DNA from: Escherichia coli
GTDB lineage: Bacteria > Pseudomonadota > Gammaproteobacteria > Enterobacterales > Enterobacteriaceae
Length of the DNA stretch: 64,000 nt
Assembly: GCA_023061495.1 (NCBI GenBank)
Contig: GCA_023061495.1_3643.1
Reading direction: 5' to 3' (one strand)
Below the pieces are notes generated by a model. That model was not told where the DNA came from. It made no database searches and saw only the letters and a program-made list of their open reading frames with translations. Position 1 is the first letter of the stretch. Every line of letters begins with the position of its first letter. A program made the position numbers and the translations under genes. Of the stretch, positions 8,975-23,812 are shown in pieces.

Positions 8975-8982
8975 GTCCAATT

Positions 8983-10402: not shown

Positions 10403-10828
10403 ATGATCTATGAAATGCCAAAACTGATTCGCGACGATGCCCAAAACGCTCACACCATTATTATGGGCAAACGCATGGATATTATTTGTCATAGAGATTT
10501 CTGGGAAGGAAGTTACTTCACAGAGTATTTTGGTAAACTGGACAATGGTCTGCTGATCCAGTTCTACACCGATGCGGAAAACAACATTCACTGGGAGTTC
10601 GAAACTGAAGATATTCATAAACTTTTCACCTTCCTCGGTATTAAGGTTGAGGCCAAGTTTGAAGAAGGCGAGTGCGACGATTGTGGATTCTACGAGGTAA
10701 CAGATTTCTATCTCCCAAGTGGTGAGAACCTTTACTATGAAAGCCACTTCGGCAACTCAAATATGCCACAAGGTTGGGATGAGTTTTTTGAAATTGCGGA
10801 AGAGGAGCTGGCATACCGTGATTATTGA
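10403..10828 (+). CDS. Hypothetical protein
   Basis: RBS GGAGAA upstream of ATG; ORF track. Confidence 0.5.
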   Translation: MIYEMPKLIRDDAQNAHTIIMGKRMDIICHRDFWEGSYFTEYFGKLDNGLLIQFYTDAENNIHWEFETEDIHKLFTFLGIKVEAKFEEGECDDCGFYEVTDFYLPSGENLYYESHFGNSNMPQGWDEFFEIAEEELAYRDY

Positions 10829-11276: not shown

Positions 11277-11329
11277 CAGCGGGTTTTTGAGATGGTATAG
11301 TCACCACAACGATTGAGAGAGGGAGCACT

Positions 11330-11500
11330 ATGGAGACTAAAATCTTAATTCTGGCTGTGATAGATACAACCGAAGGGGCTGTGTTCGAATCTGCAGGAGG
11401 GTATTTCTACCTACCCTACGGAAAAAGAACTGCTGAACCAGGTAAAGATTCAATCATCAAAGTGTCCCCGTGTGCTTTCTGGCTGGAGATTTTGGTATAA
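11330..11500 (+). CDS. Hypothetical small protein (56 aa, below track cutoff)
   Basis: TTGACA-17-TATAGT promoter at about 11273-11301, then GAGAGAGGGAG RBS and ATG at 11330. Confidence 0.4.
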   Translation: METKILILAVIDTTEGAVFESAGGYFYLPYGKRTAEPGKDSIIKVSPCAFWLEILV

Positions 11501-11526
11501 GATTGCAGAGGATTTGGGAGAGAATT

Positions 11527-11721
11527 ATGAGAAACAAGAGAGAGCTTTACTCTGGCGCGTGGATAAACGATCAACAGGTTGGAGAGGTAACCTGCTTCCG
11601 GTGTTTTACTCGGTACAATCTTAAAACTGCACCAAAAAGTGTTCCAAAGACTGATGGTTATTACATAAAAGAGCCTCATTGCCCGAAATGTAAATGCCGA
11701 GTATACTGGAGTAACCTGTAA
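11527..11721 (+). CDS. Hypothetical zinc-ribbon protein (64 aa)
   Basis: ATG 11527 after GGGAGAG; CFRCF...CPKCKC. Confidence 0.45.
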   Translation: MRNKRELYSGAWINDQQVGEVTCFRCFTRYNLKTAPKSVPKTDGYYIKEPHCPKCKCRVYWSNL

Positions 11722-11725
11722 AAGA

Positions 11726-11753
11726 TTGACATCTGAAAACTACAGTGTATAAT
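11726..11753 (+). promoter_or_regulatory. Sigma70-like promoter (TTGACA-16-TATAAT)
   Basis: Near-consensus -35 and -10 hexamers about 30 nt upstream of the 11785 gene. Confidence 0.55.
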
Positions 11754-11784
11754 ATACGCACAGACTAACAGAGAGCGACGTATT

Positions 11785-11976
11785 ATGGTAATTTTTAACC
11801 GGGATGGCATCATAGTTAGACAGCACCCCTTCCTTGAATACTATCAAATTGAGCAATGGTGCTACGGAGATTGCAGTCACTCCTATGGGCAAAGTTGGGG
11901 ATATCGCACAGTTTTTGAATCAACAGACCTTGACAAAGTAAGACAGAAAGTTTTAGAACTTATTAACAACAAGTGA
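11785..11976 (+). CDS. Hypothetical small protein
   Basis: ORF track; downstream of strong promoter. Confidence 0.5.
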   Translation: MVIFNRDGIIVRQHPFLEYYQIEQWCYGDCSHSYGQSWGYRTVFESTDLDKVRQKVLELINNK

Positions 11977-11986
11977 GTATCGTGCC

Positions 11987-12319
11987 ATGGTAACATTGGA
12001 AAGACGTAAAGCTATCGCCGCCACACTGGCAGACATCTTTTGGGATTGCAACTTAAAAGATACCCGAAATTGTGGCGCATCTGTAGATGTATTATTCCCA
12101 CGGCCCACCATTGTTGCAATGGGAAACCTGTTAAACGTAGTGTACGGAGCATGGGACAAAGAAGGTGGATTCTATATCTGGCAACCTGACTACGGAGCCT
12201 GGAAAGAGGTAAGGGGTGCGGATGACTTTGGGCCTACAGTTGCTAAGATGGATGGCTGGGAAATTTATGTTGGAAACGACATGAAGCTGAAAGGCGAGAT
12301 TGTTTACTGGTTACCTTAA
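11987..12319 (+). CDS. Hypothetical protein
   Basis: ORF track; compact spacing. Confidence 0.5.
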   Translation: MVTLERRKAIAATLADIFWDCNLKDTRNCGASVDVLFPRPTIVAMGNLLNVVYGAWDKEGGFYIWQPDYGAWKEVRGADDFGPTVAKMDGWEIYVGNDMKLKGEIVYWLP

Positions 12320-12339
12320 GAAAGTGCAGGAGATAAAGT

Positions 12340-12585
12340 ATGAACAAAGGGTGGACATTCGTAGACGGCGTTGAAAACATGCCTCTCGGAAAGTATATCG
12401 TAGCCATGGCTGACAAGAATGGCAATGTAGATTTCGGAGCTTGCGAGGTTGTTCTTGCAGGATCTGGTGGCTATGTGCACAAAACTGGGGTAATTAATGG
12501 TCAGTTCTACTTTGATCACAACCCTGTTGTAGCGTATATGGCTATGCCAGAGTTCAAGCTACCAAAGGAGGGTGCTGATGTTTAA
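12340..12585 (+). CDS. Hypothetical protein
   Basis: RBS GCAGGAG upstream of ATG. Confidence 0.5.
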   Translation: MNKGWTFVDGVENMPLGKYIVAMADKNGNVDFGACEVVLAGSGGYVHKTGVINGQFYFDHNPVVAYMAMPEFKLPKEGADV

Positions 12586-12772
12586 GCTTAAATCTGCATG
12601 GAACATTGCTGTAGGCGATGAGATCCGCATTCCGGGTGGGAAGACCGTTATGAAGATATCCCGTATTGAATACGAAGGTGACCGTGTATTCCATATTTTT
12701 GCAGAAGATGGTCGAGAAATTTATATACAGGCAGGCTCACACATCTATATTCGTAAAGGGGATGACAAATGA
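12578..12772 (+). CDS. Hypothetical small protein
   Basis: ATG 12578 after AAAGGAGGG; overlaps upstream gene end. Confidence 0.5.
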   Translation: MFKLKSAWNIAVGDEIRIPGGKTVMKISRIEYEGDRVFHIFAEDGREIYIQAGSHIYIRKGDDK

Positions 12773-13110
12773 CAGAGATCATCATTTCAACTGCAGGGTA
12801 TGTATTCCTGACAATCATTGCGCTGATCATCTTGGTGGTGGTGTATGGATTTGTTATCCTGCCTATTCTTGAGACATTTAGTTTGTGTCGGTGTTGGAGA
12901 AAGGCTTACGGACCACAGCCGTGGAAAGACTGGCCTCATCTGTTACGCATAGCGTTCTCCTATGCCTATGATCACTCCAGCAGTGCATGCATAACTGGGT
13001 ATCACGCCCACAACTGGAACTGGGAAGGGTTGGGGAGATGGAATGTTATAAAAACTATACCTCTACGCATGTACAAAGGAAAAGGAGGGATTGATGGGAA
13101 TACCTGTTAA
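12769..13110 (+). CDS. Hypothetical membrane protein
   Basis: ATGA overlap with upstream stop; N-terminal hydrophobic segment IISTAGYVFLTIIALIILVVVYGFVILPIL. Confidence 0.5.
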   Translation: MTEIIISTAGYVFLTIIALIILVVVYGFVILPILETFSLCRCWRKAYGPQPWKDWPHLLRIAFSYAYDHSSSACITGYHAHNWNWEGLGRWNVIKTIPLRMYKGKGGIDGNTC

Positions 13111-13738
13111 AGACAGAAAAGTATGTGGTCGTGGAGTAAACGATTTAAAAGACAAAGTCCCAATGTACCAATCTGTTAATGGTAAGAGAGTACCAGAACC
13201 CCACTACGCTACATGGAAAGCATTATTCCAGAGGTGCTACGGCGATAACTCAAAGTACCATACAGGTTGTGAAGTTGTAGAAGATTGGTGGTTGTTCTCA
13301 GAATTCTGGAAATGGATGGATACACAAGAGTGGAAAAGAGACTCTAAGAAGTTCACTCTTGACAAAGATCTGAAAATCCCTGGAAACAGAATATACTCCC
13401 CAGAAACATGTATGTTTGTCCCACCACAAATAAACACCTTATTTGGCATAAGACAGGCAGCACGAGGGGATTTACCTTTGGGTGTGACACTTAGAAAAGA
13501 TGTAAACAAGTATCTCGTGCATTGTCATCGAGATGGAAAAATTGTTCATGGCGGTCATTTCGATGATCCACAGACAGCACACAAGGTGTGGCAAGAAATG
13601 AAACTTGAGGAGATGAAACTTCAGGCTATTAAAAACAAAGATGAGATTTGGCTGTTCGCCATTAAACGTGCAATAACTATCCTTGAGAATGATTTGAAAA
13701 ATAATAAGGAGACTATAACATTGGTGAAATTTATTTAA
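13094..13738 (+). CDS. AP2-domain protein with degenerate HNH-like N-terminal region (homing-endonuclease-derived)
   Basis: GVTLRKDVNKYLVHCHRDGKIVHGGHFDDPQTAHKVWQE fits AP2 DNA-binding domain; RBS AAAGGAGGG before ATG 13094. Confidence 0.55.
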   Translation: MGIPVKDRKVCGRGVNDLKDKVPMYQSVNGKRVPEPHYATWKALFQRCYGDNSKYHTGCEVVEDWWLFSEFWKWMDTQEWKRDSKKFTLDKDLKIPGNRIYSPETCMFVPPQINTLFGIRQAARGDLPLGVTLRKDVNKYLVHCHRDGKIVHGGHFDDPQTAHKVWQEMKLEEMKLQAIKNKDEIWLFAIKRAITILENDLKNNKETITLVKFI

Positions 13739-13839
13739 GATATTTATGGTAGTATTTATTTTAAAATTATAAAAATTTTAGGCGATGAGGGAAAATATGT
13801 AATGGATTTTCCCTTATTTATCAGATATTTGCAGATATT

Positions 13840-14250
13840 TGGAAATCCTTAGAAAATCAGAAAATGGATCGAAAACTAAAATGGATTTTTCAGAGTAGGC
13901 GCGACAAGCTGAATAACTCATCCTACCGTTTGCACCATATTCCAGGCCACCATTATAGATTTCCCACACATGCTCACATCCTTCTACTAGAACTTCCTCC
14001 ACTTACCCTTGACCTTTTATGGTAATAATCTAACCACTATCTTGAAGTTGCAGTGCAGCTTTCCAGGTACTCGATCTGTTTTTCGTTTCAAAGATTGAAT
14101 TTTCTGAAAATTTTTCTCGATAAATTTTTCGGTACTCGATCTGTTTTTCGTTTTCTGAATCAGATTTTCTGGGAATCGTTCCGGCGCTCGACCTGAAATT
14201 TTTGGGGACGAAATCGATTTTTCGTTTTCAGAAATGGATTTTTAAAATTT
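13840..14250. repeat. AT-rich non-coding region with iterons (23-bp perfect direct repeat at 14066-14088 and 14131-14153; several AAAATGGAT and TTTTTCGTTTTC units)
   Basis: Direct repeats visible in sequence; no convincing ORF. Confidence 0.55.
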
Positions 14251-14389
14251 CTATATGGGAATATTTTAGGAGTTATTATTTTATATAGAATTGTCACGGT
14301 AGGTAATTAGCATGCTAACTAAATTTATGAAATGCGAAAAGTTCTCATTTAGAATTTTGAGTGATAATCATTCTCGTTTGCAGAATAAC

Positions 14390-14566
14390 GGGCACCCCCG
14401 GTGATTGTCTCCCGGCCCCTACTGCCCCGGCTTGTTATTATAGTAACACACAGGACAAAGAAAGCAAGAAGTTTTTGCATAAATTTTTAGACGATAATGA
14501 TAATCGTTCTCATTTCATGCAGCGCCCATCCCCGGTGGTTGTCTCCCCCGTCACCGGTGCCTGCCG
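14390..14566 (+). repeat. Two copies of a GC-rich element (core CCGGTG(A/G)TTGTCTCCC) in an AT-rich intergenic region; third copy inverted at 22498-22540
   Basis: 14390-14431 and 14525-14566 share core and upstream GATAATC(A/G)TTCTC flank; potential stem CCGGTG/CACCGG. Confidence 0.45.
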
Positions 14567-14770
14567 TCCTTTCGATATGTATATTGTGCCACCTGGCGGG
14601 GCCGCTGTCAACACTTTTCAAAAAATTTTTCTAACCTGATGCGCTAACCGCTGCAACCTGGCGGGGCCAGCCTGGCAGGACCTAACTGACCAGGTAGGGG
14701 AGAATGAAGGCTTGCAAACCTGGTAGGCCTATGCTATAGGATAAGTAACAATTGAAGAGGAGGTACAAAA

Positions 14771-14947
14771 ATGAAAGGTAATATAATCCCCCTGGAAAAT
14801 GTAGCTATTAATGACGCTGAGGCTATCGCCCTGGTTGAAAAGGCTATGGCGGGAGCGTTGGAACATAAAGAAGAGTACGAAAAAATGATGGTTAACCTGG
14901 CAGGGGCGGCGGCTGGAGAGTTCTGCCCAAAAAATAATTTTAACTAA
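14771..14947 (+). CDS. Hypothetical small protein (58 aa, below track cutoff)
   Basis: RBS GAAGAGGAGG 8 nt before ATG 14771; stop TAA 14945-14947. Confidence 0.45.
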   Translation: MKGNIIPLENVAINDAEAIALVEKAMAGALEHKEEYEKMMVNLAGAAAGEFCPKNNFN

Positions 14948-14950
14948 TGG

Positions 14951-14979
14951 TTGACAGCTCGTACAGTTCTTGTTATTCT
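14951..14979 (+). promoter_or_regulatory. Sigma70-like promoter (TTGACA-17-TATTCT)
   Basis: Hexamers upstream of gene 15035. Confidence 0.45.
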
Positions 14980-15034
14980 TATCCTCGCAAGGTGAACAAC
15001 ACCACACCAATTAACAGAGAGAGGATAAAAAATC

Positions 15035-15232
15035 ATGAACGCCTACGGAATTAAAGTACGTCGCAACACTCACCAGGTGGTCACCGATCAAATGGTTTGC
15101 CGGGTGGATGTAACTATCAACAACGGGCAAGGCCTTTATAAATTCCGTCGTGGTCAGAGCTATACCCGGCAACAGCTTAATCGTTGCGCCCTGACAAAAG
15201 GCCAGATCAACCACTGGTTTAATAAAAAATAA
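15035..15232 (+). CDS. Hypothetical small basic protein
   Basis: RBS GAGAGGATAAAAAATC-ATG; ORF track. Confidence 0.55.
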   Translation: MNAYGIKVRRNTHQVVTDQMVCRVDVTINNGQGLYKFRRGQSYTRQQLNRCALTKGQINHWFNKK

Positions 15233-15234
15233 TA

Positions 15235-15263
15235 TTGACATACGGCCTGACACCAACTACACT
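15235..15263 (+). promoter_or_regulatory. Sigma70-like promoter (TTGACA-17-TACACT)
   Basis: Hexamers upstream of gene 15297. Confidence 0.5.
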
Positions 15264-15296
15264 AAAAACCACAAAAGACACTGAGAGGATAAAATC

Positions 15297-15695
15297 ATGA
15301 AAACCACTACCTTTAATTTTGATAATGCGGACTTTTCTTTTTCTGATGTCAAGAACTGCCGCCGTGATCGTGGATTTTACAAGGCTTATAATCTGGTTGG
15401 CCTGGACGATGACAATAATTTGCACGAAGTAGCTGAGATCCGGTATTATGCCGCCGCCAGCGGGAACACTCACTACTGCGTTTTTTGGATACACGACAAC
15501 AAGAACAATAAGTACGGCTATACTGGCGGCAAGGCGAGCGGTCACGGTTATGATAAAGCCAACGCAGCACTTGAGAGCGCATTAAATGCTATGGGGATCA
15601 CTGCCGACGGCTGGATCTACGAAGAAGAGTTTTTATCGGCACTTGCTGACCGCCTGGGCTATAAAAAGCACATTGTAACATGCGCCCACGAATAA
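15297..15695 (+). CDS. Hypothetical protein
   Basis: RBS GAGAGGATAAAATC-ATG; ORF track. Confidence 0.6.
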   Translation: MKTTTFNFDNADFSFSDVKNCRRDRGFYKAYNLVGLDDDNNLHEVAEIRYYAAASGNTHYCVFWIHDNKNNKYGYTGGKASGHGYDKANAALESALNAMGITADGWIYEEEFLSALADRLGYKKHIVTCAHE

Positions 15696-15701
15696 AAATT
15701 G

Positions 15702-15729
15702 TTGACACGCTGCAAAATTCAAGTAAACT
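15702..15729 (+). promoter_or_regulatory. Sigma70-like promoter (TTGACA-16-TAAACT) followed by leader hairpin GGCGGGAA-TGTT-TCCCGCC (15740-15758)
   Basis: Hexamers and hairpin read directly from sequence. Confidence 0.5.
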
Positions 15730-15778
15730 AGGCACAAAAGGCGGGAATGTTTCCCGCCAACACAAAGGAAAAAAGATC

Positions 15779-16174
15779 ATGAATAAGAACGTACGCCGCA
15801 TCATGAACGAACTGGCAAACGATGAAAAAATTATTGATATGCATTTGGTCAACATTTGCCGCCGTTGTGTAACATACAACAACCGCGCCGCGAAAGCGCG
15901 TGAGATGAACGCAAAAGGCACCTTAAAGCCCTTTCAGGTGGTTGTAAAATCTATAACTAGCGCAGCAGGCCAGGCGCATGACCACAACAACGAGAGCGCT
16001 AATATTGATCCGTCTTACGTAATGAAACGGATCCGGACTTGCAAGAATAAAGAGCAGGTGTATAACGTCATAGATTGGCTGGACTCCCTGGGCGATGTGG
16101 TTTACAATAGGTTTTCTGCAGCTATTGAGATTCAGTTAGACAGGTTGGACGGGAAAGTACTGAAAACTTACTGA
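15779..16174 (+). CDS. Hypothetical protein
   Basis: ATG 15779 in frame with track ORF 15680-16174, preceded by AAAGGAAAAAAGATC leader. Confidence 0.55.
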   Translation: MNKNVRRIMNELANDEKIIDMHLVNICRRCVTYNNRAAKAREMNAKGTLKPFQVVVKSITSAAGQAHDHNNESANIDPSYVMKRIRTCKNKEQVYNVIDWLDSLGDVVYNRFSAAIEIQLDRLDGKVLKTY

Positions 16175-16175
16175 G

Positions 16176-16221
16176 TTTATTTTTAGATGGCCTTGACTCC
16201 AGGGCCATCAATAAAGTAAAC
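16176..16221 (+). repeat. Conserved 46-bp intergenic palindromic element, copy 1 (TTTATTTTTAGATGGCCTTGACTCCAGGGCCATCAATAAAGTAAAC)
   Basis: Near-identical copies at 16796-16842 and 20515-20560; 7-bp stem GATGGCC/GGCCATC with loop containing TTGACT. Confidence 0.6.
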
Positions 16222-16254
16222 TAACCACAGTTGAGCGGAAAGGGGGGCTTAAAG

Positions 16255-16374
16255 ATGAGCACTGCACGCCAATACACAAAGGTAACTATTATCGTTTGCG
16301 TTGTCGGTTACATCCTGGCGCAAATGTTAATGAGTAGCGCCAACAGTTTTGCAAAATTTTTCTTAAATTTTTAA
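16255..16374 (+). CDS. Possible small hydrophobic peptide (39 aa)
   Basis: RBS AAAGGGGGG before ATG 16255; hydrophobic core VTIIVCVVGYILAQML. Confidence 0.3.
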   Translation: MSTARQYTKVTIIVCVVGYILAQMLMSSANSFAKFFLNF

Positions 16375-16402
16375 TTGACAAGCTAATCCAAATCGGTATA
16401 CT
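16375..16402 (+). promoter_or_regulatory. Sigma70-like promoter (TTGACA-16-TATACT) followed by leader hairpin GGGAA-AACT-TTCCC
   Basis: Hexamers upstream of gene 16454. Confidence 0.5.
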
Positions 16403-16453
16403 TAAACACGTAAACGGGAAAACTTCCCAGAACACACAAAAGGAGAAAACACC

Positions 16454-16795
16454 ATGACTACTATGACCGCCGCAGAAAAAGCTATGCAGATCGCCGCGCT
16501 GAAAAAACAGATTGCAGACCTTGAGAACAAGATCGATAACTTTGAAATCGACGAGGACAAGTACGACGAAAACTATGATGAATGGTTAGACGAGATCTAC
16601 GGCGAAATTATGATCGGAAACATTTCTTTTCTTCCGTCGCGTATCCTCAAGGAGCTAGATCCTATCGCTTACCGCTGCGGATTTAGCGACTACATCGACA
16701 GCCTGGATATTGAGGACGATGAAGAGTACCAAGAATTGCAGACAGAGCTCGAAGAAGTGAAAGAAGAGCTTTCAGAGCTGGAAGAAAACGAGTAA
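16454..16795 (+). CDS. Hypothetical acidic coiled-coil protein
   Basis: RBS AAAAGGAGAAAACACC-ATG; highly acidic E/D-rich sequence. Confidence 0.6.
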   Translation: MTTMTAAEKAMQIAALKKQIADLENKIDNFEIDEDKYDENYDEWLDEIYGEIMIGNISFLPSRILKELDPIAYRCGFSDYIDSLDIEDDEEYQELQTELEEVKEELSELEENE

Positions 16796-16842
16796 ATTTA
16801 TTTTTAGATGGCCTTGACTCCAGGGCCATCAATAAAGTAAAC
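16796..16842 (+). repeat. Conserved intergenic palindromic element, copy 2
   Basis: Identical core to 16176-16221. Confidence 0.6.
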
Positions 16843-16881
16843 TTTACACTGTTAACACTGAACTAATGAGGAGTTAAAACC

Positions 16882-17127
16882 ATGGCAGCACTAATCACCA
16901 AATATTATGCGCCCACCAACACCAAAAGCGCCCGTATCATGGTAAAAGGCTTCGGACGTAAAAAGGTTTACGCCTGGGATTATGCCTTAGATATGGAAGA
17001 CAACTACACCAACGCAATGACCGATTTTATTAATGAACTAAATAAACAGATCTTGACAAATTATAAAGTTACCGATATTGCTTACATAGGTGAAGGCGGG
17101 ATCTGTTTTGTAGGCATTGTGAAATAG
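16882..17127 (+). CDS. Hypothetical small protein
   Basis: RBS GAGGAG before ATG; ORF track. Confidence 0.6.
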   Translation: MAALITKYYAPTNTKSARIMVKGFGRKKVYAWDYALDMEDNYTNAMTDFINELNKQILTNYKVTDIAYIGEGGICFVGIVK

Positions 17128-17175
17128 TTATTTTTTCGGTGGTCCTGGTTGCAGGGCCATCTATAAAGATAATTT
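17128..17175 (+). repeat. Degenerate copy of the intergenic palindromic element (hairpin GGTCCTG-GTTG-CAGGGCC)
   Basis: Shares TTATTTTT...GGGCCATC...ATAAAG flanks with the other copies. Confidence 0.45.
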
Positions 17176-17203
17176 ATTAACACCATGAAAGGAGAAAGTA
17201 CAC

Positions 17204-17743
17204 ATGATTAGCGGGGCTAGTTTTATTATTGGCGCTATTGCTACGGCTTTAATTGTAAATAAGATCCAGGATAAAAAGGAAAGAGGAAGTACCGCCCTTG
17301 CAGAATATCCATTTTGGGCATTCAACGATAACGAAGATTATATTATAAAGTATAAAAATAAAGAAGGCGACCAAGTAACACCGCGACCGATCCCGGCTTA
17401 CAAAATGCAGGAAACACTATACCGCCTGGAAGCGGGTGGCGCAAAAATTGTAGACTTTTGGGGATACGACCACACAGATCAGGAAGTTATAAAGCGCCGC
17501 ATCCGGGCTATTCAGGCCAATATTGAAGTTAGCAAGGGGGAAGATATGAAAATTAATTTCGAGAAAATTGTAAAGCGCCCTCATGATTCCGAAGAGCTGC
17601 CAGAACGCCGCCAGCGTAACAATAAACTGAATAAGCCAAAAAGGTTTGGGAAGATCTGGCGCAATCATTATGATCGTAAATTGCCCGGCCTACTTTTGGA
17701 ACGTGAACGACAGGCAGAACGATACCGCCATAAAGACAAATAA
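17204..17743 (+). CDS. Hypothetical protein with N-terminal transmembrane segment and basic C-terminus
   Basis: RBS AAAGGAGAAAG before ATG; hydrophobic ASFIIGAIATALIV. Confidence 0.6.
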   Translation: MISGASFIIGAIATALIVNKIQDKKERGSTALAEYPFWAFNDNEDYIIKYKNKEGDQVTPRPIPAYKMQETLYRLEAGGAKIVDFWGYDHTDQEVIKRRIRAIQANIEVSKGEDMKINFEKIVKRPHDSEELPERRQRNNKLNKPKRFGKIWRNHYDRKLPGLLLERERQAERYRHKDK

Positions 17744-17751
17744 CAACCAAC

Positions 17752-17778
17752 GCCCCGCCATTGTGCGGGGCTTTTTAT
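17752..17778 (+). terminator. Rho-independent terminator
   Basis: CCCCGC-CATTGT-GCGGGG followed by CTTTTTATTT. Confidence 0.55.
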
Positions 17779-17902
17779 TTCTATCCTACTAATAGCGCCC
17801 CTGGTTGGCCCTGTAAGCGCCAAAAAGGCCCCCACCTATGCAATCGCCCCCCTTAACCTGAAAACATCGCCCAGGGCCGTTTTATGGCGTTAAAAATATC
17901 AT

Positions 17903-17930
17903 TGACATCGTCAACAGGTTAGCTATACTA
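17903..17930 (+). promoter_or_regulatory. Sigma70-like promoter (TTGACA ... TATACT)
   Basis: Hexamers upstream of gene 17962. Confidence 0.5.
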
Positions 17931-17961
17931 ACCACATCAAAGAGAGAAAGGAGTAAACGCC

Positions 17962-18222
17962 ATGCGTAAATTAAAAAATTTTGATAAAGTTGATGTTATC
18001 CTGAATAATTTTTACTACTGCAACAACAAGGCTATTTGGTGGCGTGATAGTTCCACCGATAAAGTCAAGGCGCGCTTTCTTCAGGGGCACTGGCAAGGCC
18101 GCCCAGTGATTAAAATCATGGGGCAATTGGTAGCGTTTAAAAATTGCCGCCGTGTTGATGACGTTGAGGAGATTTTAAACATTTTGCGCCACAATAATTT
18201 AAAAAATAGTGTTGACAAGTAA
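17962..18222 (+). CDS. Hypothetical small protein
   Basis: RBS AAAGGAG before ATG; ORF track. Confidence 0.55.
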   Translation: MRKLKNFDKVDVILNNFYYCNNKAIWWRDSSTDKVKARFLQGHWQGRPVIKIMGQLVAFKNCRRVDDVEEILNILRHNNLKNSVDK

Positions 18223-18239
18223 ATCTCAATAAGTATAAT
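18212..18239 (+). promoter_or_regulatory. Sigma70-like promoter (TTGACA-16-TATAAT) followed by leader hairpin GGCGGGAA-AACT-TTCCCGCC (18250-18268)
   Basis: Consensus hexamers; hairpin sits about 10 nt after the -10 box. Confidence 0.6.
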
Positions 18240-18296
18240 TAAACACACAGGCGGGAAAACTTCCCGCCACTAACAAAGAAAACAGGAGAAAATATC

Positions 18297-18920
18297 ATGA
18301 CCACCGTTAACATTACCACAGGTTACAATTTATCTTTCGACGTGCTGACCGACGAACAAAAAGAAAAAGCCATTGAAATGGTACGCGAAAGAGAAGAACG
18401 CAGCGGGGATGATTTTTTCGCAGAAAATGTAATTGAATACTATAAAGAATATATCTTTCCAGAGTACGGCCTTGAAGATACCGAAGTACATTGGTCCGGC
18501 TTTTGGTGCCAGGGTGACGGCGCGTCAATCAGTGCCGAAAACGTGGATTTAGAAAAATTTTTGCGTAAAGTAAAGGCCCTGACCAAGTTCCGATCAATTC
18601 GTCACTTGTTCGGCACAATGCACGATGGCGAACTATCCGCCAGTGTTGAACGCGACAAGTACAGCCATTACAGCCATGAAAACACTGTAAGCGGGTACAT
18701 TGATACCACCTGGCTAGATCTGACCGCCAAACAAGAAAACAAAGTGGAAGACCTGGAAGAACTGATCACCGAGACGGTACGGGAGCTATCCCGCAAGGTT
18801 TACGTAGACCTGGAACAGGCCTATCTGGAACAGTTCACCGCAGAAAACCTGATCGGCCTTATCGAGGCCAACGACTGGCGGTTTGATGTCGATGAATATG
18901 GTGAGATGACTTTTTCATAA
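18297..18920 (+). CDS. Hypothetical protein (207 aa)
   Basis: RBS ACAGGAGAAAATATC-ATG; ORF track. Confidence 0.6.
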   Translation: MTTVNITTGYNLSFDVLTDEQKEKAIEMVREREERSGDDFFAENVIEYYKEYIFPEYGLEDTEVHWSGFWCQGDGASISAENVDLEKFLRKVKALTKFRSIRHLFGTMHDGELSASVERDKYSHYSHENTVSGYIDTTWLDLTAKQENKVEDLEELITETVRELSRKVYVDLEQAYLEQFTAENLIGLIEANDWRFDVDEYGEMTFS

Positions 18921-19011
18921 ATAAAGTGTTGCAATAATCTAAAAACCTGCTATATTAAAAACTCAAGGGGCAAGACGTTTGCCCCACACACAAAACAAAG
19001 AGGATAACATC

Positions 19012-19392
19012 ATGAAAAACACTACCAAGGCTATTGACACCGTTATGTTTAACCTGGTCACATTCCGTGAAGATATGAAAGATCTTCCGCGTGAAACAGT
19101 GTGCGACCATATCGAAAACTATCGCAAACTAATCAAAGAGTTGCCTTTAAAACGTGATCAATATGCGGCTAACGCCATGCTTAATGCCATGATCAAAAAG
19201 ATGATCCAGTGTGATTTAACCCTGGCCTATGATTATGCGGGTGGTCGTTTTGCAGTATACAATCAGCCCGTGCCCGGTATGAGCACCACCGAAGAATTGC
19301 ACGCGCTCAATCTAAAACAAGACGTGTGGGATAGTATGCCTCGCGTGGTGGTATGGGTAGAAAGCGGAAAGATTTACGGCGATAATTTTTAA
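19012..19392 (+). CDS. Hypothetical protein
   Basis: ATG 19012 after AAAGAGGATAACATC; promoter TTGCAA...TATATT and leader hairpin GGGGCAA-GACG-TTTGCCCC upstream. Confidence 0.6.
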   Translation: MKNTTKAIDTVMFNLVTFREDMKDLPRETVCDHIENYRKLIKELPLKRDQYAANAMLNAMIKKMIQCDLTLAYDYAGGRFAVYNQPVPGMSTTEELHALNLKQDVWDSMPRVVVWVESGKIYGDNF

Positions 19393-19402
19393 TCAGGTAA
19401 CA

Positions 19403-19428
19403 GGCGGCATATTTGCCGCCTTATTGTT
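19403..19428 (+). terminator. Rho-independent terminator
   Basis: GGCGGCA-TATT-TGCCGCC followed by TTATTGTT. Confidence 0.55.
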
Positions 19429-19456
19429 GATCAGAACTGTAAAAGAGGTACATAGA

Positions 19457-19828
19457 ATGGAATTTATTATTTTGGCTATATTGGTTGCCTTGTTTAACGC
19501 CTGGATCGCTGGCAAGATGGGGAGATCCGCCTTTTTATGGTTTATTATATCTATTTTCCTGGGGGTGGTTGCAACTATTGTATTGGTTATCCTTGCAATT
19601 GTTGACAAGGGGAATAATAGAAAGGGTAAAGTATTTTCAGACCTGTACGACGCTCAAACGTTTGTCAACGCCTATTATAGCGATCTTCCAGTCTCCCTAC
19701 GTTGCAGCCTTGCACAACAGGTTTTCGATGAAGCTAAAACCAGAGATCACGCCCATGAGATTTGTTTAACTGAGGCGGATCGCTTATTTGAGAGGAATAG
19801 AAAATATGTGGGCCAACCGTTTAAATAA
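19457..19828 (+). CDS. Hypothetical membrane protein (two predicted TM helices)
   Basis: ATG 19457 after AAAAGAGG; MEFIILAILVALFNAWIAG and FLWFIISIFLGVVATIVLVILAIV. Confidence 0.55.
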   Translation: MEFIILAILVALFNAWIAGKMGRSAFLWFIISIFLGVVATIVLVILAIVDKGNNRKGKVFSDLYDAQTFVNAYYSDLPVSLRCSLAQQVFDEAKTRDHAHEICLTEADRLFERNRKYVGQPFK

Positions 19829-19938
19829 TGCCACGTTAATTAATCCATTTAGTGAAGATTTGAAGCCAGCCGCCTGGCGTGACGGATTCAATAACGAAAG
19901 ATTTACTTTTAGGCCTGATCTTGAGAGGTTTTATAGCA

Positions 19939-20064
19939 ATGGATCGAACAACGGGAGAGATAATTTTTCTTGCGATGTGTGTCGTGATCGGACTACTGGG
20001 GGCCATTGCAAACCACGTAACTGCTAACAGGAGGGAAGGGGGAGACGATGACAACCAAGGATAA
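19939..20064 (+). CDS. Possible small membrane peptide (41 aa)
   Basis: ATG 19939 after GAGAGG; hydrophobic IIFLAMCVVIGLLGAIA; competes with an alternative-frame ORF. Confidence 0.3.
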   Translation: MDRTTGEIIFLAMCVVIGLLGAIANHVTANRREGGDDDNQG

Positions 20065-20170
20065 GCCCCGCACCGATAAGGCGCGCCGTGTTATGGTATG
20101 GCTTGAGATCATCGCCCTTGAAATATTGTTAGGCGTAGGGATGTATTTTATCGCTGTAAGCAACTGATAA
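20048..20170 (+). CDS. Possible small membrane peptide (39 aa)
   Basis: RBS CAGGAGGGAAGGGGGAG before ATG 20048; hydrophobic VMVWLEIIALEILLGVGMYFIAV; terminator follows. Confidence 0.4.
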
Positions 20171-20171
20171 C

Positions 20172-20202
20172 GGCCCCCGATCCCTGGGGGCCTAACTTTT
20201 TT
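20172..20202 (+). terminator. Rho-independent terminator
   Basis: GGCCCCC-GATCCCT-GGGGGCC followed by TAACTTTTTT. Confidence 0.6.
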
Positions 20203-20312
20203 CAAAAAATTTTTCTTCCTGAGTGTTGCAATCCGGTCCAGAATATGGATAATAACAATCAACGGGGAGACACTCCCCACCACACAGACAAAGTTCCAAA
20301 AGGAGAAACAAA

Positions 20313-20513
20313 ATGAGCAACAATATCCGCGTTATTAACTTCAAAAAAGAAGAAAAAATTGCTGTGCTGGTTGATGGTCAAGAAATATTCAAAGGCGACT
20401 ACGAGGACCACCAAGCGGCGATCAGTATTACCCGCGTGATTGGTTATCATAATTTCTACCCTCAAGGCGCTGAGGCAGCAGTAAAACGAATTAAAGAGAT
20501 TGTAGATCTGTAA
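20313..20513 (+). CDS. Hypothetical small protein
   Basis: RBS AAAAGGAGAAACAAA-ATG; promoter and leader hairpin GGGGAG-ACAC-TCCCC upstream. Confidence 0.55.
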   Translation: MSNNIRVINFKKEEKIAVLVDGQEIFKGDYEDHQAAISITRVIGYHNFYPQGAEAAVKRIKEIVDL

Positions 20514-20514
20514 A

Positions 20515-20560
20515 ATTTATTTTTAGATGGCCTTGACTCCAGGGCCATCAATAAAGTAAA
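20515..20560 (+). repeat. Conserved intergenic palindromic element, copy 3
   Basis: Identical core to 16176-16221. Confidence 0.6.
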
Positions 20561-20604
20561 TTTAAACCCTGTTAAAATAATCAGTGCAAAAAGGAGCAAT
20601 GATC

Positions 20605-20904
20605 ATGTTTATACCCGCCAATAATCTCTATTTCTTTGATGGTCAGATCGTAGACGGCGTGGAAGTTGAGATCACTGGATGTCAAGGCGGTCAGGTAATG
20701 ATCTTCCGCAATAGTGCCTTTAACGATCAATTTATTACAATGACTGTGGAAGTTAAAAAACTGGACGATAAGAAAACACTCATTGACTATTCCGTGAAAG
20801 ATTATCCAGACTACCACATGATCTATGGTGATTTGTGCATTGTTGACCGTGACAAGGTAGGCGGCATTGTGATCGCTATTGTGAACGATGTTTTCTCTAA
20901 ATAA
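20605..20904 (+). CDS. Hypothetical protein
   Basis: ATG 20605 with AGGAG 7 nt upstream; track ORF 20584-20904. Confidence 0.55.
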   Translation: MFIPANNLYFFDGQIVDGVEVEITGCQGGQVMIFRNSAFNDQFITMTVEVKKLDDKKTLIDYSVKDYPDYHMIYGDLCIVDRDKVGGIVIAIVNDVFSK

Positions 20905-21125
20905 TTCCGGCAAATGATGCAAAATAAGGCCCCTGGCGGGGCCTGCAGCGATATAATCACATAAAGACTATGCGGTTGCATGGCCTTTATTATTTTGGCG
21001 CTACAGCGGCCCCCAAGGCGCTTAAAAAATTTTTAAAGAAGTACTTGCATCAAGTCCGACAATATGGATAATAGGACGTATCAGGGGGCAACAAGCCCCA
21101 CCAACCACAAAGAGGATAAAAAATC

Positions 21126-21305
21126 ATGGCTATTATTGCAAAGACTGAGATCGTAGGCTTGGATTCTATTCTCCTCGCATATGAGGAAGCTATAGAAATG
21201 TATGTAGTTTCCTATGGTGAATATATCCGTGAATATAAATCTATTGATCTGGCTTTTGAATGTTATATTCGCCAGGTTAATAAAGCGTACGATGATTATC
21301 GTTAA
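21126..21305 (+). CDS. Hypothetical small protein (59 aa, below track cutoff)
   Basis: RBS AAAGAGGATAAAAAATC-ATG; promoter TTGCAT...ATAATA and hairpin GGGGGC-AACAA-GCCCC upstream. Confidence 0.45.
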   Translation: MAIIAKTEIVGLDSILLAYEEAIEMYVVSYGEYIREYKSIDLAFECYIRQVNKAYDDYR

Positions 21306-21395
21306 AACAGTTTGACAACAAACAACCATTTAACAAAGCATAATACATAAGGCGGTGGAATGGTCCGCCACCTGGAACAAGAAGAGGAAAACAAG

Positions 21396-21500
21396 ATGAA
21401 ACAGAAATTAATTGATGCGGTGATCCTGGTTATTGCCCTGGGTATTGGCCTGATTGCAACCATGGCTAATATGATCTTGTCTTCCAACGGTATCGGGTAA
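21396..21500 (+). CDS. Possible small membrane peptide (34 aa)
   Basis: RBS AAGAAGAGGAAAACAAG-ATG; hydrophobic AVILVIALGIGLIATMANMIL; hairpin GGCGGTGG...CCGCCACC upstream. Confidence 0.35.
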   Translation: MKQKLIDAVILVIALGIGLIATMANMILSSNGIG

Positions 21501-21510
21501 GGTGAAACAA

Positions 21511-21726
21511 ATGATCACGAACAAAACAGGCAAAACGGAATTTTTACGCGGCTTGCAAATAGGTAAGCCCGAGATCTGGCATTGCACTAAAACACCACGC
21601 GACGAAATGAAAGACTTTACCGCCACGCTGAAGCGGGTAAAGATATCCATTACGCAGAAAAAAGCCTTGATAGTGGTGGAAGGTGAGATCCCTCAAGCCG
21701 TTGTTATAGTTGAGCGTACAGCATAG
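21511..21726 (+). CDS. Hypothetical small protein
   Basis: ATG 21511 after AAGGTG; ORF track 21502-21726. Confidence 0.45.
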   Translation: MITNKTGKTEFLRGLQIGKPEIWHCTKTPRDEMKDFTATLKRVKISITQKKALIVVEGEIPQAVVIVERTA

Positions 21727-21815
21727 TTTAATCTATACCGTACGCCCCATTAACTAACAAAGCATAAACAGGCGGCGGTAACCGCCTTAAACGCAGCAGA
21801 AAGAGGATAGACAAC

Positions 21816-22100
21816 ATGAAAAAGATGATCGCAGTGGTTGCCCTGGTTATTGGACTTAATGCGCCTGTAATGGCCAAAGAGTTGGCAAAAGAGGTAGATC
21901 TAACTGATATCCATGCCGTCAATCAAATCGGTGTTACTTATCGGTTATGCCTTGCCGCAAAAACTTTCCAGGACGGCACAACAGAGTACTACGGATTCGA
22001 GGGCGTCCGGTGCGGTGAGCTTGCTCGCGACCTTAAAGAAGATCCAGACCTGGAGGATCTGCCGATAACCGTAAACGGGAAAACTTACGTGAACCGTTAA
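21816..22100 (+). CDS. Hypothetical secreted protein (signal peptide)
   Basis: RBS AGAAAGAGGATAGACAAC-ATG; N-terminus MKKMIAVVALVIGLNAPVMA; hairpin GGCGG-CGGTAA-CCGCC in leader. Confidence 0.55.
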   Translation: MKKMIAVVALVIGLNAPVMAKELAKEVDLTDIHAVNQIGVTYRLCLAAKTFQDGTTEYYGFEGVRCGELARDLKEDPDLEDLPITVNGKTYVNR

Positions 22101-22102
22101 CC

Positions 22103-22237
22103 ATGAGAAAGATAATTATTACCATGGGGATCATGGCGGCAATGTTGGCGATCTTTCCCTTTATGGTTAGGTATGTGCTGATTAATGTTGTCCTGGTAGT
22201 AAGCGATCTGGTGTTATATATTAACTCATTGTTTTAG
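22103..22237 (+). CDS. Possible small membrane peptide (44 aa)
   Basis: ATG 22103 overlapping upstream stop region; strongly hydrophobic; no strong RBS. Confidence 0.3.
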   Translation: MRKIIITMGIMAAMLAIFPFMVRYVLINVVLVVSDLVLYINSLF

Positions 22238-22245
22238 GCGCGATA

Positions 22246-22437
22246 ATGACAGCGGAAGAAGTTAAAAAAGTACTGGCGGTACTGCGTTATCATAATCATT
22301 GCAAGGTGAAGAATGATCCTGATTATCTTGATTCATCCCTTGAAGAGGATACACTACAAGCCATAAGCAACATGCAAGAATTGCTTAAGCGTATGACAGA
22401 GAAAAACCGACCGGACTATATAGGCGAAAAAGTATAA
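22246..22437 (+). CDS. Hypothetical small protein
   Basis: ORF track; terminator follows. Confidence 0.45.
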   Translation: MTAEEVKKVLAVLRYHNHCKVKNDPDYLDSSLEEDTLQAISNMQELLKRMTEKNRPDYIGEKV

Positions 22438-22451
22438 TCTTTATAAACCAT

Positions 22452-22483
22452 AAAACAGGGCTTGTAATGGTCCTGTTTTTTGT
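22452..22483 (+). terminator. Rho-independent terminator
   Basis: AACAGG-GCTTGTAATGGT-CCTGTT followed by TTTTTG. Confidence 0.5.
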
Positions 22484-22497
22484 TATACTTGTTTCAC

Positions 22498-22540
22498 GGG
22501 TGGCACCTGGCGACGGGGGGAGACAATCACCGGTGGTGCC
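22498..22540 (-). repeat. Inverted copy of the GC-rich CCGGTGATTGTCTCCC element
   Basis: Reverse complement reads GGCACCACCGGTGATTGTCTCCCCCCGTCGCCAGGTGCC, close to the 14525-14566 copy. Confidence 0.45.
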
Positions 22541-22566
22541 TGTTATATAAAAAACTATAAAAACCG

Positions 22567-22595
22567 TTGACATCTGCCAGGTGGTGGGGTAACAT
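22567..22595 (+). promoter_or_regulatory. Sigma70-like promoter (TTGACA-17-TAACAT) followed by leader hairpin GGGCA-AAAG-TGCCC
   Basis: Hexamers upstream of gene 22650. Confidence 0.5.
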
Positions 22596-22649
22596 TTATC
22601 TTGAAGGGGCAAAAGTGCCCACACAACAACCAGAAGAGAGGAAAACGCC

Positions 22650-22922
22650 GTGTCAAGCTGGATTAACCAAGAAGTCGAATCACGTTTTAATGCTATTTGG
22701 GATCTCATCGAAAAAGAGGACGGAACATCAAGCCCCTACCTTAATAATCTTGAATTCCATTTTGTGGAAGCGATGAACGCAGAACATGATCACGAAGGCG
22801 GCGCGGATGAGTTCGCTAAAGGGTATGGCTTCAACAATGCCAACGAAATGATCGAGGCGGTTGTACTCCAGGCTGAGGAAGATTATCAATTAAAAACACT
22901 TGAATTTTGCCGCCGTAAGTAA
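22650..22922 (+). CDS. Hypothetical acidic protein (GTG start)
   Basis: RBS AGAGAGGAAAACGCC-GTG; ORF track. Confidence 0.5.
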   Translation: MSSWINQEVESRFNAIWDLIEKEDGTSSPYLNNLEFHFVEAMNAEHDHEGGADEFAKGYGFNNANEMIEAVVLQAEEDYQLKTLEFCRRK

Positions 22923-22983
22923 TAAGATAATGACACGGGCCAAAAGGCCAACCAAACCAGAACCCCATAAAGAGGTAAACATC

Positions 22984-23247
22984 ATGAAACGTCTTGATCA
23001 GCTCAAACTAGTTCAGTACATGGCCTACAAAGTTCTTGAAGTTCAAAAAGGTAGCAAAAAAGAGGTTTGCGAGAAAGCATATAAGATCTTTACCCGTAAA
23101 AAAGATGATTGGATGTTACGCCAGACCAAAAAGGCGGACATCTTGGGGTACCTGGAAGAAGAGATCCGGCTTGAAGAACAAGAAGAGATCCGCCGCAGTG
23201 AGGCAGATTATCAGGCAGCTTGGGAAAACTGGATGAGCAACAAATAA
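22984..23247 (+). CDS. Hypothetical small charged protein
   Basis: ATG 22984 after AAAGAGGTAAACATC; leader hairpin GGCC-AAAA-GGCC. Confidence 0.55.
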   Translation: MKRLDQLKLVQYMAYKVLEVQKGSKKEVCEKAYKIFTRKKDDWMLRQTKKADILGYLEEEIRLEEQEEIRRSEADYQAAWENWMSNK

Positions 23248-23314
23248 TACAACAAGTTACGGTCAGGGGGGGTAATAAAGCCCCTTGATCACATAAAAAT
23301 TATGCTATCCCTGG

Positions 23315-23343
23315 TTGACAGGGATCGGCAGTTTTGCTATATT
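23315..23343 (+). promoter_or_regulatory. Sigma70-like promoter (TTGACA-17-TATATT)
   Basis: Hexamers upstream of gene 23393. Confidence 0.55.
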
Positions 23344-23392
23344 CTTTTTTGAAGGGAAGTTGTAAGAAAATTAACTAAGAGGTAAAAACACC

Positions 23393-23812
23393 ATGAACAT
23401 TAAATCTAATAATCCGGCATATAGCTTTGATAACGCTTTTTGTCACGGTCCGGCGGCGAAAGGATTCGAAATCGATGGTAAACTAATTATTGTCAATGTT
23501 GACGGGGAAGAGGTTGCAGTATATCCGGTGGCAGACGTTAAAAGCCGTCTACAATGCCGCATCGATGTTACCGCCTATCAGCTTGATCCGGTCCGCATAG
23601 TTGCCCTGGTCCTGGAAGAAGAAATTAAAGCAATGCACCACAGCAACAAGTTTATTGGTGACGCTCAAGATAATATGAAGGTATGCCGCCATAAAGTTAA
23701 TGAAGTGCTTAAAGAGTACGGTTATAAAGATCTGATGATCAAACGTGAGGAAAAATTCCGCTACCGTAACGACCTAGCAAATCGGATTTTTGAAATATAC
23801 GAATCATTATAA
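23393..23812 (+). CDS. Hypothetical protein
   Basis: RBS AAGAGGTAAAAACACC-ATG; ORF track. Confidence 0.6.
   Translation: MNIKSNNPAYSFDNAFCHGPAAKGFEIDGKLIIVNVDGEEVAVYPVADVKSRLQCRIDVTAYQLDPVRIVALVLEEEIKAMHHSNKFIGDAQDNMKVCRHKVNEVLKEYGYKDLMIKREEKFRYRNDLANRIFEIYESL

Follow-up and report, generated by a model that had tools for sequence, protein, structure and literature searches.

Promoter-early stem-loop (PeSL) cassettes have been described in the T4-like phages RB49/phi1, KVP40/nt-1 and PST/T4 (Arbiol et al. 2010, PMC2839356; Comeau et al. 2014, PMC4122927). As defined in those papers, a cassette joins a sigma70-like early promoter with an upstream A/T tract, a polyG/polyC stem-loop, and the Shine-Dalgarno (SD) sequence and start of a small ORFan, and the cassettes cluster in hyperplastic regions. 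The stem-loop can occupy five positions, including over the -35 box, over the -10 box and past the -10 box, and its proposed roles are to stop upstream transcription and to allow gene shuffling by recombination. One RB49 stem-loop cut lacZ expression as strongly as rrnB T1, and encapsidated PeSL mini-circles have been reported. It is also established that 5'-terminal stem-loops with no more than 2-4 nt ahead of the hairpin protect E. coli mRNAs (Emory, Bouvet and Belasco 1992, cited in PMC3997798). Here we analyze a 64 kb stretch of DNA (contig GCA_023061495.1_3643.1, hereafter the window) from an rV5-like phage (Vequintavirus), in which the promoters of an array of small genes are repeatedly accompanied by short GC-clamped hairpins.

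As far as its sequence can tell, the array element is of the published PeSL kind. It combines a sigma70 match, an A/T tract, a G-run/C-run stem-loop (GGCGGG/CCCGCC, GGGG/CCCC) and the SD sequence and start of an ORFan, it lies in a hyperplastic region, and it coincides with the bounds of insertions and deletions (indels). We put at roughly 0.5 the probability that the array represents an rV5-like phage's early region, variable and rich in ORFans, and is built from self-contained cassettes of the PeSL kind, in which a hairpin at about +4 is a predicted 5' stabilizer.

Anatomy of the promoter-hairpin units

The array occupies positions 14771-23812 on the plus strand, corresponds approximately to rV5 genes 164-197 and, over its 9 kb, is 92-96% identical to many Vequintavirus genomes of E. 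coli. All 25 of its open reading frames (ORFs) have an SD sequence and a start codon. Sixteen sigma70-like promoter sites precede array genes, 12 of them scoring at least 9/12 with a 16-18 bp spacer, and one promoter, that of gene 10, is perfect (TTGACA-16-TATAAT, 12/12). The 22 bp upstream of the -35 box average 75% A+T, compared with 57% for the whole window. A first-pass annotation of the window had described about 25 small genes, at least 12 of them with a sigma70-like promoter, and both counts agree with ours.

Eight promoters (-35 boxes at 15702, 16375, 18212, 18929, 20226, 21045, 21312 and 22567) are followed by a GC-clamped hairpin, an arrangement referred to here as class A. The hairpin starts 10-13 nt past the -10 box, at exactly 10 nt in five units; only the gene 18 unit (21312) departs from this, with 6 nt. 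Two more units deviate at the promoter: that of the ninth (gene 24) is weak, and the tenth (gene 20) lacks a -35 box but retains hairpin and leader. Hairpin and promoter are coupled in position: 7 of the 28 intergenic hairpins begin 9-13 nt past a -10 box, compared with 1.03 expected under random placement within intergenic DNA (P ~2e-4). A pattern scan and a covariance model, run over the full 64 kb on both strands, found no such units outside the array, so that they are confined to it, the first at 15.7 kb and the last at about 22.9 kb.

The leaders that follow the hairpins are 56% A, 21% C, 17% G (mostly the SD sequence) and 6% T, and the C+A fraction of the -45 to -16 region is 0.62, compared with 0.50 in 42 control genes (P 4e-4). 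The distance from hairpin to start codon varies from 20 to 34 nt. In RNA folding, the hairpin is the sole stable element of the predicted 5' untranslated region, with the SD sequence and start codon open, and five hairpins are strong (-12.6 to -14.6 kcal/mol, z -2.6 to -4.4). The 8 nt past class A hairpins hold 0-1 T, compared with 5-7 past the terminators ending at 17771, 19421, 20192 and 22479; the U tract that directly follows the hairpin of an intrinsic terminator is missing from class A.

The first-pass annotation had placed a hairpin 6-10 nt after the -10 box at 12 promoters. The coupling itself survives, as do the three hairpins quoted in its support (18250-18268, 18967-18985 and 20264-20278) and the CA-rich leader with an AGGAG-type ribosome-binding site, which we find as GGAG-type sites behind the T-poor leaders. 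The distance, however, is 10-13 nt, with only the gene 18 unit at 6, and just 8-9 promoters carry a downstream hairpin.

Individually, the plus-strand class A cassettes vary around a common plan. The gene 4 cassette (15702-15778) has -35 TTGACA (15702-15707), -10 TAAACT (15724-15729), an A/C-rich leader and an SD sequence; its hairpin, GGCGGGAA-tgt-TTCCCGCC (15740-15758; -14.6 kcal/mol, z -4.4; 44.3 bits with the covariance model), is invariant across 5 genomes. The gene 6 cassette (16375-16453; -35 at 16375-16380, -10 TATACT at 16397-16402, leader, SD) is 76% identical over 66 nt to that of gene 10 and has a weak hairpin, GGGAA-aac-TTCCC (16416-16428; z -0.8; covariance model E 0.085). The gene 10 cassette itself (18212-18296) couples its consensus promoter to a hairpin at 18250-18268 (-14.6 kcal/mol, z -3.1; 45.8 bits), again with leader and SD. 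Leader and SD are likewise present in the cassettes of genes 11 (18929-19011; TTGCAA-16-TATATT with a TG extension; hairpin GGGGCAA-gacgt-TTGCCCC at 18967-18985, z -3.6), 15 (20226-20312; TTGCAA-16-GATAAT; hairpin GGGGAG-aca-CTCCCC at 20264-20278, z -3.3), 17 (21045-21125; TTGCAT-16-GATAAT; hairpin 21085-21099) and 23 (22567-22649; TTGACA-17-TAACAT; hairpin GGGCA-aaag-TGCCC at 22607-22620). The gene 18 cassette (21312-21395) is class A-like, with TTGACA, a 21-bp spacer and CATAAT (21339-21344) followed by a hairpin at 21350-21373 (-14.0 kcal/mol, z -2.6; covariance model E 0.057). The gene 20 hairpin, AGGCGG-cggtaa-CCGCCT (21770-21787), leads into the gene 20 leader and has no recognizable -35, and the weak gene 24 cassette (22900-22983; TTGAAT-17-TAAGAT; hairpin 22937-22949; A/C-rich leader) has orthologues in relatives L003 and L004.

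Four canonical terminators on the plus strand divide the array into about five units: 17752-17771 (7 T in the next 8 nt), 19402-19421 after gene 11 (a terminator or attenuator, rV5 t184), 20172-20192 (rV5 t181) and 22452-22479 after gene 22. The view that the genes are independently promoted applies where a gene has a consensus host-type promoter to itself; genes 12-14 and 19-22 lack one, and the array is therefore partly polycistronic.

Hairpins that enclose promoter boxes

Seven more promoter-associated hairpins overlap the promoter itself, six enclosing the -35 box (14708, 16186, 16807, 17138, 20526 and 23307) and one the -10 box (17917). Four of them belong to a 57-nt cassette, class B (the D1 repeat family), present as three nearly identical copies and one variant, all on the plus strand. 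In the gene 5 copy (16176-16232), a T-rich tract is followed by the hairpin GATGGCCTTG-actc-CAGGGCCATC (16186-16209), which encloses -35 TTGACT and contains one sense-strand U.G wobble, and then by -10 TAAACT. The other copies precede genes 7 (16797-16853; hairpin 16807-16830) and 16 (20516-20572; hairpin 20526-20549), and the variant precedes gene 8 (17128-17184), where the hairpin GGTGGTCCTG-gttg-CAGGGCCATC (17138-17161) has two sense-strand wobble pairs. The three remaining hairpins, also on the plus strand, enclose the -35 (TTGCAA) of the gene 1 promoter (14708-14730), the -10 (TATACT) of the gene 9 promoter (GGTTAG-ctata-CTAACC, 17917-17933, with the -35 at 17902) and the -35 TTGACA of the gene 25 promoter (ATCCCTG-gttga-CAGGGAT, 23307-23325).

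Because they enclose the -35 or -10 box, these hairpins cannot be the 5' ends of their own transcripts. Their wobble pairs function solely in sense-strand RNA, which suggests that they may have a role in read-through transcripts, as 3' protection or a boundary element, or else at the DNA level. A test of the transcribed strand that compared G.U with A.C wobbles over all stems (59 vs 47) was uninformative, and suggestive only for the -35-enclosing hairpins.

Selection on the stems

Comparison with relatives indicates that the stems evolve under purifying and compensatory selection. In five Vequintavirus genomes, 1.9% of stem sites differ from the window, alongside 0% in the -35 box and 3.5% in the -10 box, compared with 7.5% for the spacer, 9.5% for the loop and 6.5% for the leader (Fisher P 3e-4); the stems are thus held roughly as constant as the promoter hexamers, and the loops drift. 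Two hairpins show compensated changes: that of gene 25, with a C-G to T-A double change in relative L005, and that of gene 11, with a compensated extra G-C pair in relative L004.

A MAFFT alignment of 40 units lost the stem register and was replaced by a gap-free seed, a covariance model and a model-based alignment. The model, built from ten gap-free seeds, recovered 72 matches in nine sources, giving 61 distinct rows. In these rows 96.6% of cells are paired, compared with 80.5% in shuffles, and seven of the eight pairs change on both sides, with 59 double-change cells where 13.7 were expected. Sliding the alignment lowered the paired fraction to 36-75%. An Rfam search of 13.5-27 kb returned no family, only a chance-level snoRNA match (E 0.69).

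In two hairpins the loop is exactly inverted while the stem is kept: gene 11, from GACGT to ACGTC (18974-18978 vs ~5733-5737 in L003), and gene 20, from CGGTAA to TTACCG (21776-21781 vs L003, L005 and L006). Such inversions would be the signature of inverted-repeat flipping or template switching in DNA.

The same grammar in other phages

The unit grammar (TTGACA, 16-17 bp, TAnnnT, ~10 nt, a GGCGG-type hairpin, leader, SD) is found in four coliphage lineages. Besides the rV5-like phages, about 12-13 units apiece are carried by Paula (Justusliebigvirus, phi92-like), nieznany (Phapecoctavirus, phAPEC8-like) and the jumbo phage JNE01 (Asteriusvirus). A hairpin of different sequence is kept at this position in front of gene 11 homologues in both Paula and nieznany, and in front of the nieznany homologue of gene 17. 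Paula's gene 17 homologue has the promoter and lacks the hairpin, which is therefore not obligatory. Stems of the GGCGGGAA...TTCCCGCC family are shared by rV5-like, phi92-like and phAPEC8-like phages, with near variants such as AGCGGGAA...TTCCCGCT in JNE01, and the discriminator gtatcacaTAG is conserved in phi92-like phages too.

In JNE01 (OR670491), the region 7900-17300 holds more than 12 small genes, each with TTGCAA or TTGACA, TATAAT and, 11-12 nt later, a hairpin that reads GGGGAGAAA...TTCTCCCC or GCGGGAA...TTCCCGC. Homologues of window genes 10 and 11 are embedded among these units, an arrangement which suggests that gene-plus-cassette units may have been exchanged between phage families.

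The Paula record (LR865361) labels 7927-7951, 11250-11273, 11507-11534, 13820-13843 and 14406-14431 as minus-strand terminators. These hairpins lie at a fixed offset past plus-strand promoters and immediately 5' of plus-strand genes, and the labels are probably mis-annotations.

A pattern scan of IMG/VR gave 98 loci, with the exact complementary arm TTCCCGCC within 9 nt in just 7 of 107 matches; for 17 fixed bases we estimate ~40-70 chance matches, and the scan is informative only for multi-copy contigs. Among the latter are contigs with 3-5 copies each of TTGACA, 16-17 bp, TAnnnT, 9-11 nt, GGCGGGAA-nnn-CCCGCC, SD and ATG: L013 (Mycobacterium phage Thonko); L029/L034/L037/L068, from one 55.9-kb contig, of which L034 is ~82% identical to phage Imvubu; L024/L070, from a 69,897-bp contig; and L007/L055/L071, from a 61-kb contig. 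The contigs among these that could be identified by similarity are cluster B-type mycobacteriophages. AT-rich viral contigs (L012/L050, 134 kb; L047/L053, 169 kb) also repeat a promoter, TTGACA...TGTATAAT, followed by a conserved G-rich start region, AGGGGTGGTTGGGCGGGAATAG. The complementary arm is absent from this region, hence no hairpin forms there, and AGGGGTGGTTGGGCGGGAATAG is possibly a G-quadruplex-like 5' end.

Mosaicism of the array

The array is mosaic: 24% of 260 matching records are colinear over it, compared with 84% of 140 for an equally long nucleotide-metabolism region. In a small sample of indel junctions (n=7, relative to ECP2303 and Mangalyan), three have their crossover within a cassette, over 6-33 nt of sequence held in common. 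One (21083-21088) falls in the GGGGG arm of the gene 17 cassette, which is a chimera of two relatives' cassettes; the second (21376-21408) lies in the SD/start region of the gene 18 cassette and the third (22950-22974) in the leader of the gene 24 cassette. In all three cases the resulting cassette is chimeric yet intact. Through their mutual resemblance the cassettes could serve as joints for the gain, loss or exchange of genes.

A predicted role in protecting early messages

Protection by a 5'-terminal stem-loop appears to be the most likely role of the downstream-type hairpins, and on our analysis it is plausible for about half of the promoter-associated hairpins. If transcription starts 7-8 nt past the -10 box, as predicted, seven units would have 2-4 unpaired nucleotides ahead of a hairpin beginning at about +3/+4, and gene 6 would have 6. 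The mRNA made by host RNA polymerase would thus open with 2-4 free nt followed by a hairpin of 13-24 nt, which would hinder RppH and the 5'-end-dependent entry of RNase E. RNase E prefers U-containing single strands. The U-poor leader would offer it few sites and would be unable to pair with the SD sequence, so that each small early mRNA could be long-lived and efficiently translated whichever gene is plugged in. We infer the early timing, the start sites and the stabilizing effect from this arrangement, and the coordinated early takeover module proposed in the first-pass annotation is likewise putative. The U-poor leader and the lack of a U tract past the hairpin fit an RNA-protective role better than termination. 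According to a passage in PMC9943677, internal stem-loops orthogonal to the RNA path leave RNase E scanning unblocked; it would therefore be the terminal position of the hairpin that matters.

Several observations weigh against this reading. Four of the ten hairpins have just 5 bp and are no more stable than shuffles. The good promoters of genes 2 (TTGACA-17-TATTCT, 14951-14979, plus strand; CA-rich leader, no convincing hairpin; P195A of the rV5 paper) and 3 (TTGACA-17-TACACT, 15235-15263, plus strand; leader 90% C+A) carry no hairpin. Seven hairpins enclose promoter boxes, and a single function for all stem-loops would consequently not be 5' protection. The sense-strand wobble test of RNA-level selection is neutral for class A. 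The covariance alignment was fitted to the model, and many of its copies are related. The unpaired 5' nucleotide count (2-4; 6 for gene 6) is a prediction, and at least 3 free nucleotides may still admit RppH. For the junctions, survivorship alone would also favor positions in intergenic DNA.

A bolder form of the protection hypothesis is tentative, and we hold it with low confidence. The +4 hairpin and the U-depleted A/C leader might together be a dedicated RNase E/RppH shield, a plug-and-play standard for early ORFans common to rV5-like, phi92-like, phAPEC8-like and Asteriusvirus phages, with RB49 as a positional variant, whose units could move between families. T4 Srd stimulates RNase E. 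A phage that boosted RNase E, for example through an Srd-like gp11, could destroy host mRNA while sparing its own, and such a protein would give it a motive to shield its own messages. In a passage of the rV5 genome paper, rV5 gp11 is reported as a probable homologue of T4 Srd.

The best placed of the alternatives, although unlikely, is the original PeSL proposal, in which the stem-loops are terminators or attenuators for transcription from upstream cassettes and insulate each gene so that its own promoter sets its dosage. It has the advantage of being published, with one RB49 stem-loop shown to lower lacZ as much as rrnB T1; it would account for hairpins at every gene boundary, including those enclosing -35 or -10, and for class B wobble pairs that work only in sense-strand RNA, i.e. 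in read-through from upstream. The tested RB49 stem-loop, however, precedes a T/A-rich -10 box, which class A hairpins do not, and a terminator at +4 to +22 would also halt its own transcript. With 0-1 T in the 8 nt past class A hairpins and AATAAAGT past class B, compared with 5-7 T at the four genuine terminators, such a role is unlikely for the downstream hairpins.

Next in order, and doubtful, is the possibility that the palindromes act mainly as DNA, as recombination or template-switch hot spots or as sites for dimeric regulators that shut early promoters, with the RNA hairpin as a by-product. The junctions inside cassettes, the loop inversions of genes 11 and 20 (a signature of events at inverted-repeat arms in DNA), the seven hairpins that overlap promoter boxes and the reported PeSL mini-circles would all fit. 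However, the variety of the stems, of which at least eight sequences occur, and their compensatory changes speak against a single sequence-specific DNA-binding protein; at 5-9 bp the stems are short for extruding cruciforms; crossovers also use SD and leader homology, not the palindrome alone; and this reading explains neither the fixed offset from the -10 box nor the U-poor leader.

It is improbable that hairpin and leader form the recognition site of a phage or host RNA-binding factor that times translation or decay of early mRNA, such as a translational operator or nuclease target. The recurrence of the GGCGGGAA...TTCCCGCC stem family across three phage groups, with near variants in JNE01, and the discriminator shared with phi92-like phages would be expected of such a site, but the loops vary freely and can invert, many unrelated stems fill the same place, the stems are too short for RNase III, and we found no boxA-like or other known motif and no Rfam match. 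Least probable is that the hairpins are minus-strand intrinsic terminators against antisense transcription from the converging minus-strand block (26-64 kb): a terminator scan lists five of them as minus-strand terminator-like, the Paula record labels their equivalents so and the array does converge with that block, but the supposed U tracts are interrupted (e.g. TGTGTGTTTA) and simply mirror the A/C-rich discriminator on the opposite strand, the array contains no promoter or gene on the minus strand, and one or two terminators at the array end would suffice, whereas the hairpins recur per gene at a fixed offset from plus-strand promoters.

Three further readings were rejected. RNase III sites were ruled out by the 5-9 bp stems, and Rho (rut) loading on the C-rich leader by its length of 20-34 nt with a strong SD immediately after. 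Nut-like boxA/boxB elements were ruled out by eye, the bases past the stems (e.g. CGCTCACAAC) having no U-rich core like that of the boxA consensus. A G-rich arm coming first was dropped as an indicator of strand, because GGGG...CCCC is identical on both strands.

If the picture drawn here is confirmed, composite promoter/stem-loop cassettes would extend beyond the T4-like phages, as a general component from which large coliphages build their variable early regions. They would provide an annotation rule for such regions, as for the Paula hairpins now labeled minus-strand terminators, compact natural expression parts that place promoter, 5' insulator and leader in ~80 bp, and a handle on predicting sites of ORFan exchange. 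They would also make the choice between stabilizer and terminator directly accessible to simple reporters.

Gene content and flanking sequences

All 25 array genes have end-to-end PHROG matches, every one to a family of unknown function; gene 8 alone matches two families, the other 24 one each. A Pfam search of the array proteins gave a single domain above threshold, PF08200 (T7 gp1.1) in the C-terminal third of gene 8 (E 1.6e-9), and none besides. This corrects the first-pass annotation, according to which none of the proteins had a recognizable domain. Gene 8 (17204-17743) is one ORF of 179 aa, with PHROG matches at residues 1-115 and 115-179, and is annotated in relatives as two overlapping genes (3962-4315 and 4305-4502 in L003). 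The difference is either a gene fusion or a frameshift.

The array is preceded by ~1 kb of repeat-rich non-coding DNA (13739-14770) and followed by ~2.9 kb of non-coding DNA (23813 to ~26700), past which genes lie on the minus strand. The downstream stretch, without convincing genes, holds several short repeats as well as incomplete copies of a class B arm (GGGCCATC; 23900 and 23968), and may be the counterpart of the 'non-coding' box on the rV5 genome map. The upstream stretch contains three tandem-like direct repeats of ~51 nt (GGTACTCGATCTGTTTTTCGTTT...) at 14066-14255, spaced 65-74 nt apart, which look iteron-like.

A conserved core of ~45 nt, GGGAGACAAYCACCGG, occurs three times, at 14385-14413 and 14527-14549 on the minus strand, both in the 1-kb stretch before the array, and at 22516-22546 on the plus strand. 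Every copy lies 20-30 nt 3' of a -10-like box, and the plus-strand copy directly follows the terminator at 22452-22479 and a TTGTAA-16-TATACT site. The predicted folds are not significant (z -0.2 to -1.8), and the element could be a small RNA or a protein binding site. A conserved A/T element, AACnnTTTTCAAAAAATTTTTCT, at 14610-14632 and 20194-20216, with weaker copies at 14095 and 16342, lies after hairpins or terminators and 5' of the next promoter, and is probably an UP-element-like module.

Comparison with known systems

Table S4 of the rV5 paper (Kropinski et al. 2013) lists predicted sigma70 promoters for nine of these genes, with sequences that end 7 nt past the -10 box: P164, P168, P174, P185, P186, P192, P194, P195 and P195A correspond to the promoters of genes 25, 23, 17, 10, 9, 6, 4, 3 and 2 here. 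The passages searched in that paper, like the table, do not mention the hairpins, the leaders or the class B cassettes. The searchable literature holds no earlier report of a PeSL-kind element in rV5-like, phi92-like, phAPEC8-like or Asteriusvirus phages, and we found no usable start-site or RNA-seq data in the literature on Vequintavirus and phi92-like phages.

Cluster B mycobacteriophages (Thonko, Imvubu-like) resemble the window in repeating a promoter, a GGCGGG-loop-CCCGCC hairpin, an SD sequence and ATG. They differ in being unrelated phages of a high-GC host, and they were found with a pattern that imposed the spacing.

Class A units resemble the stabilizing 5' stem-loops of ompA and papA (Emory, Bouvet and Belasco 1992; Bricker and Belasco 1999) in having a stable hairpin whose distance from the predicted 5' end is 2-4 nt, then an unpaired leader and a strong ribosome-binding site. 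The ompA and papA elements are single and experimentally proven, whereas the units described here have predicted 5' ends and shorter stems (5-9 bp) and recur over many promoters.

The PeSL cassettes are the closest match. They differ from those described here in phage lineage (Straboviridae, compared with Vequintavirinae), and the likeness shown between the cassettes is one of grammar. The majority of stem-loops here would also lie within the transcript, at ~+4, and have no U tract, so that the terminator role proposed for PeSL fits the downstream hairpins poorly. The RB49 cassettes whose sequence we inspected show the same grammar, with CA-rich leaders (e.g. acacccataccgaaacgaa) and, in one case, a hairpin 12 nt past the -10 box. 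Both sets repeat an A/T-rich tract, a near-consensus sigma70 promoter, a G-run/C-run stem-loop, and an SD sequence and start before small ORFans. In both the stem-loop takes several positions, here past the -10 box in 8-9 units, over the -35 box in 6 and over the -10 box in 1, and here too the junctions of indels between near relatives fall inside the cassettes.

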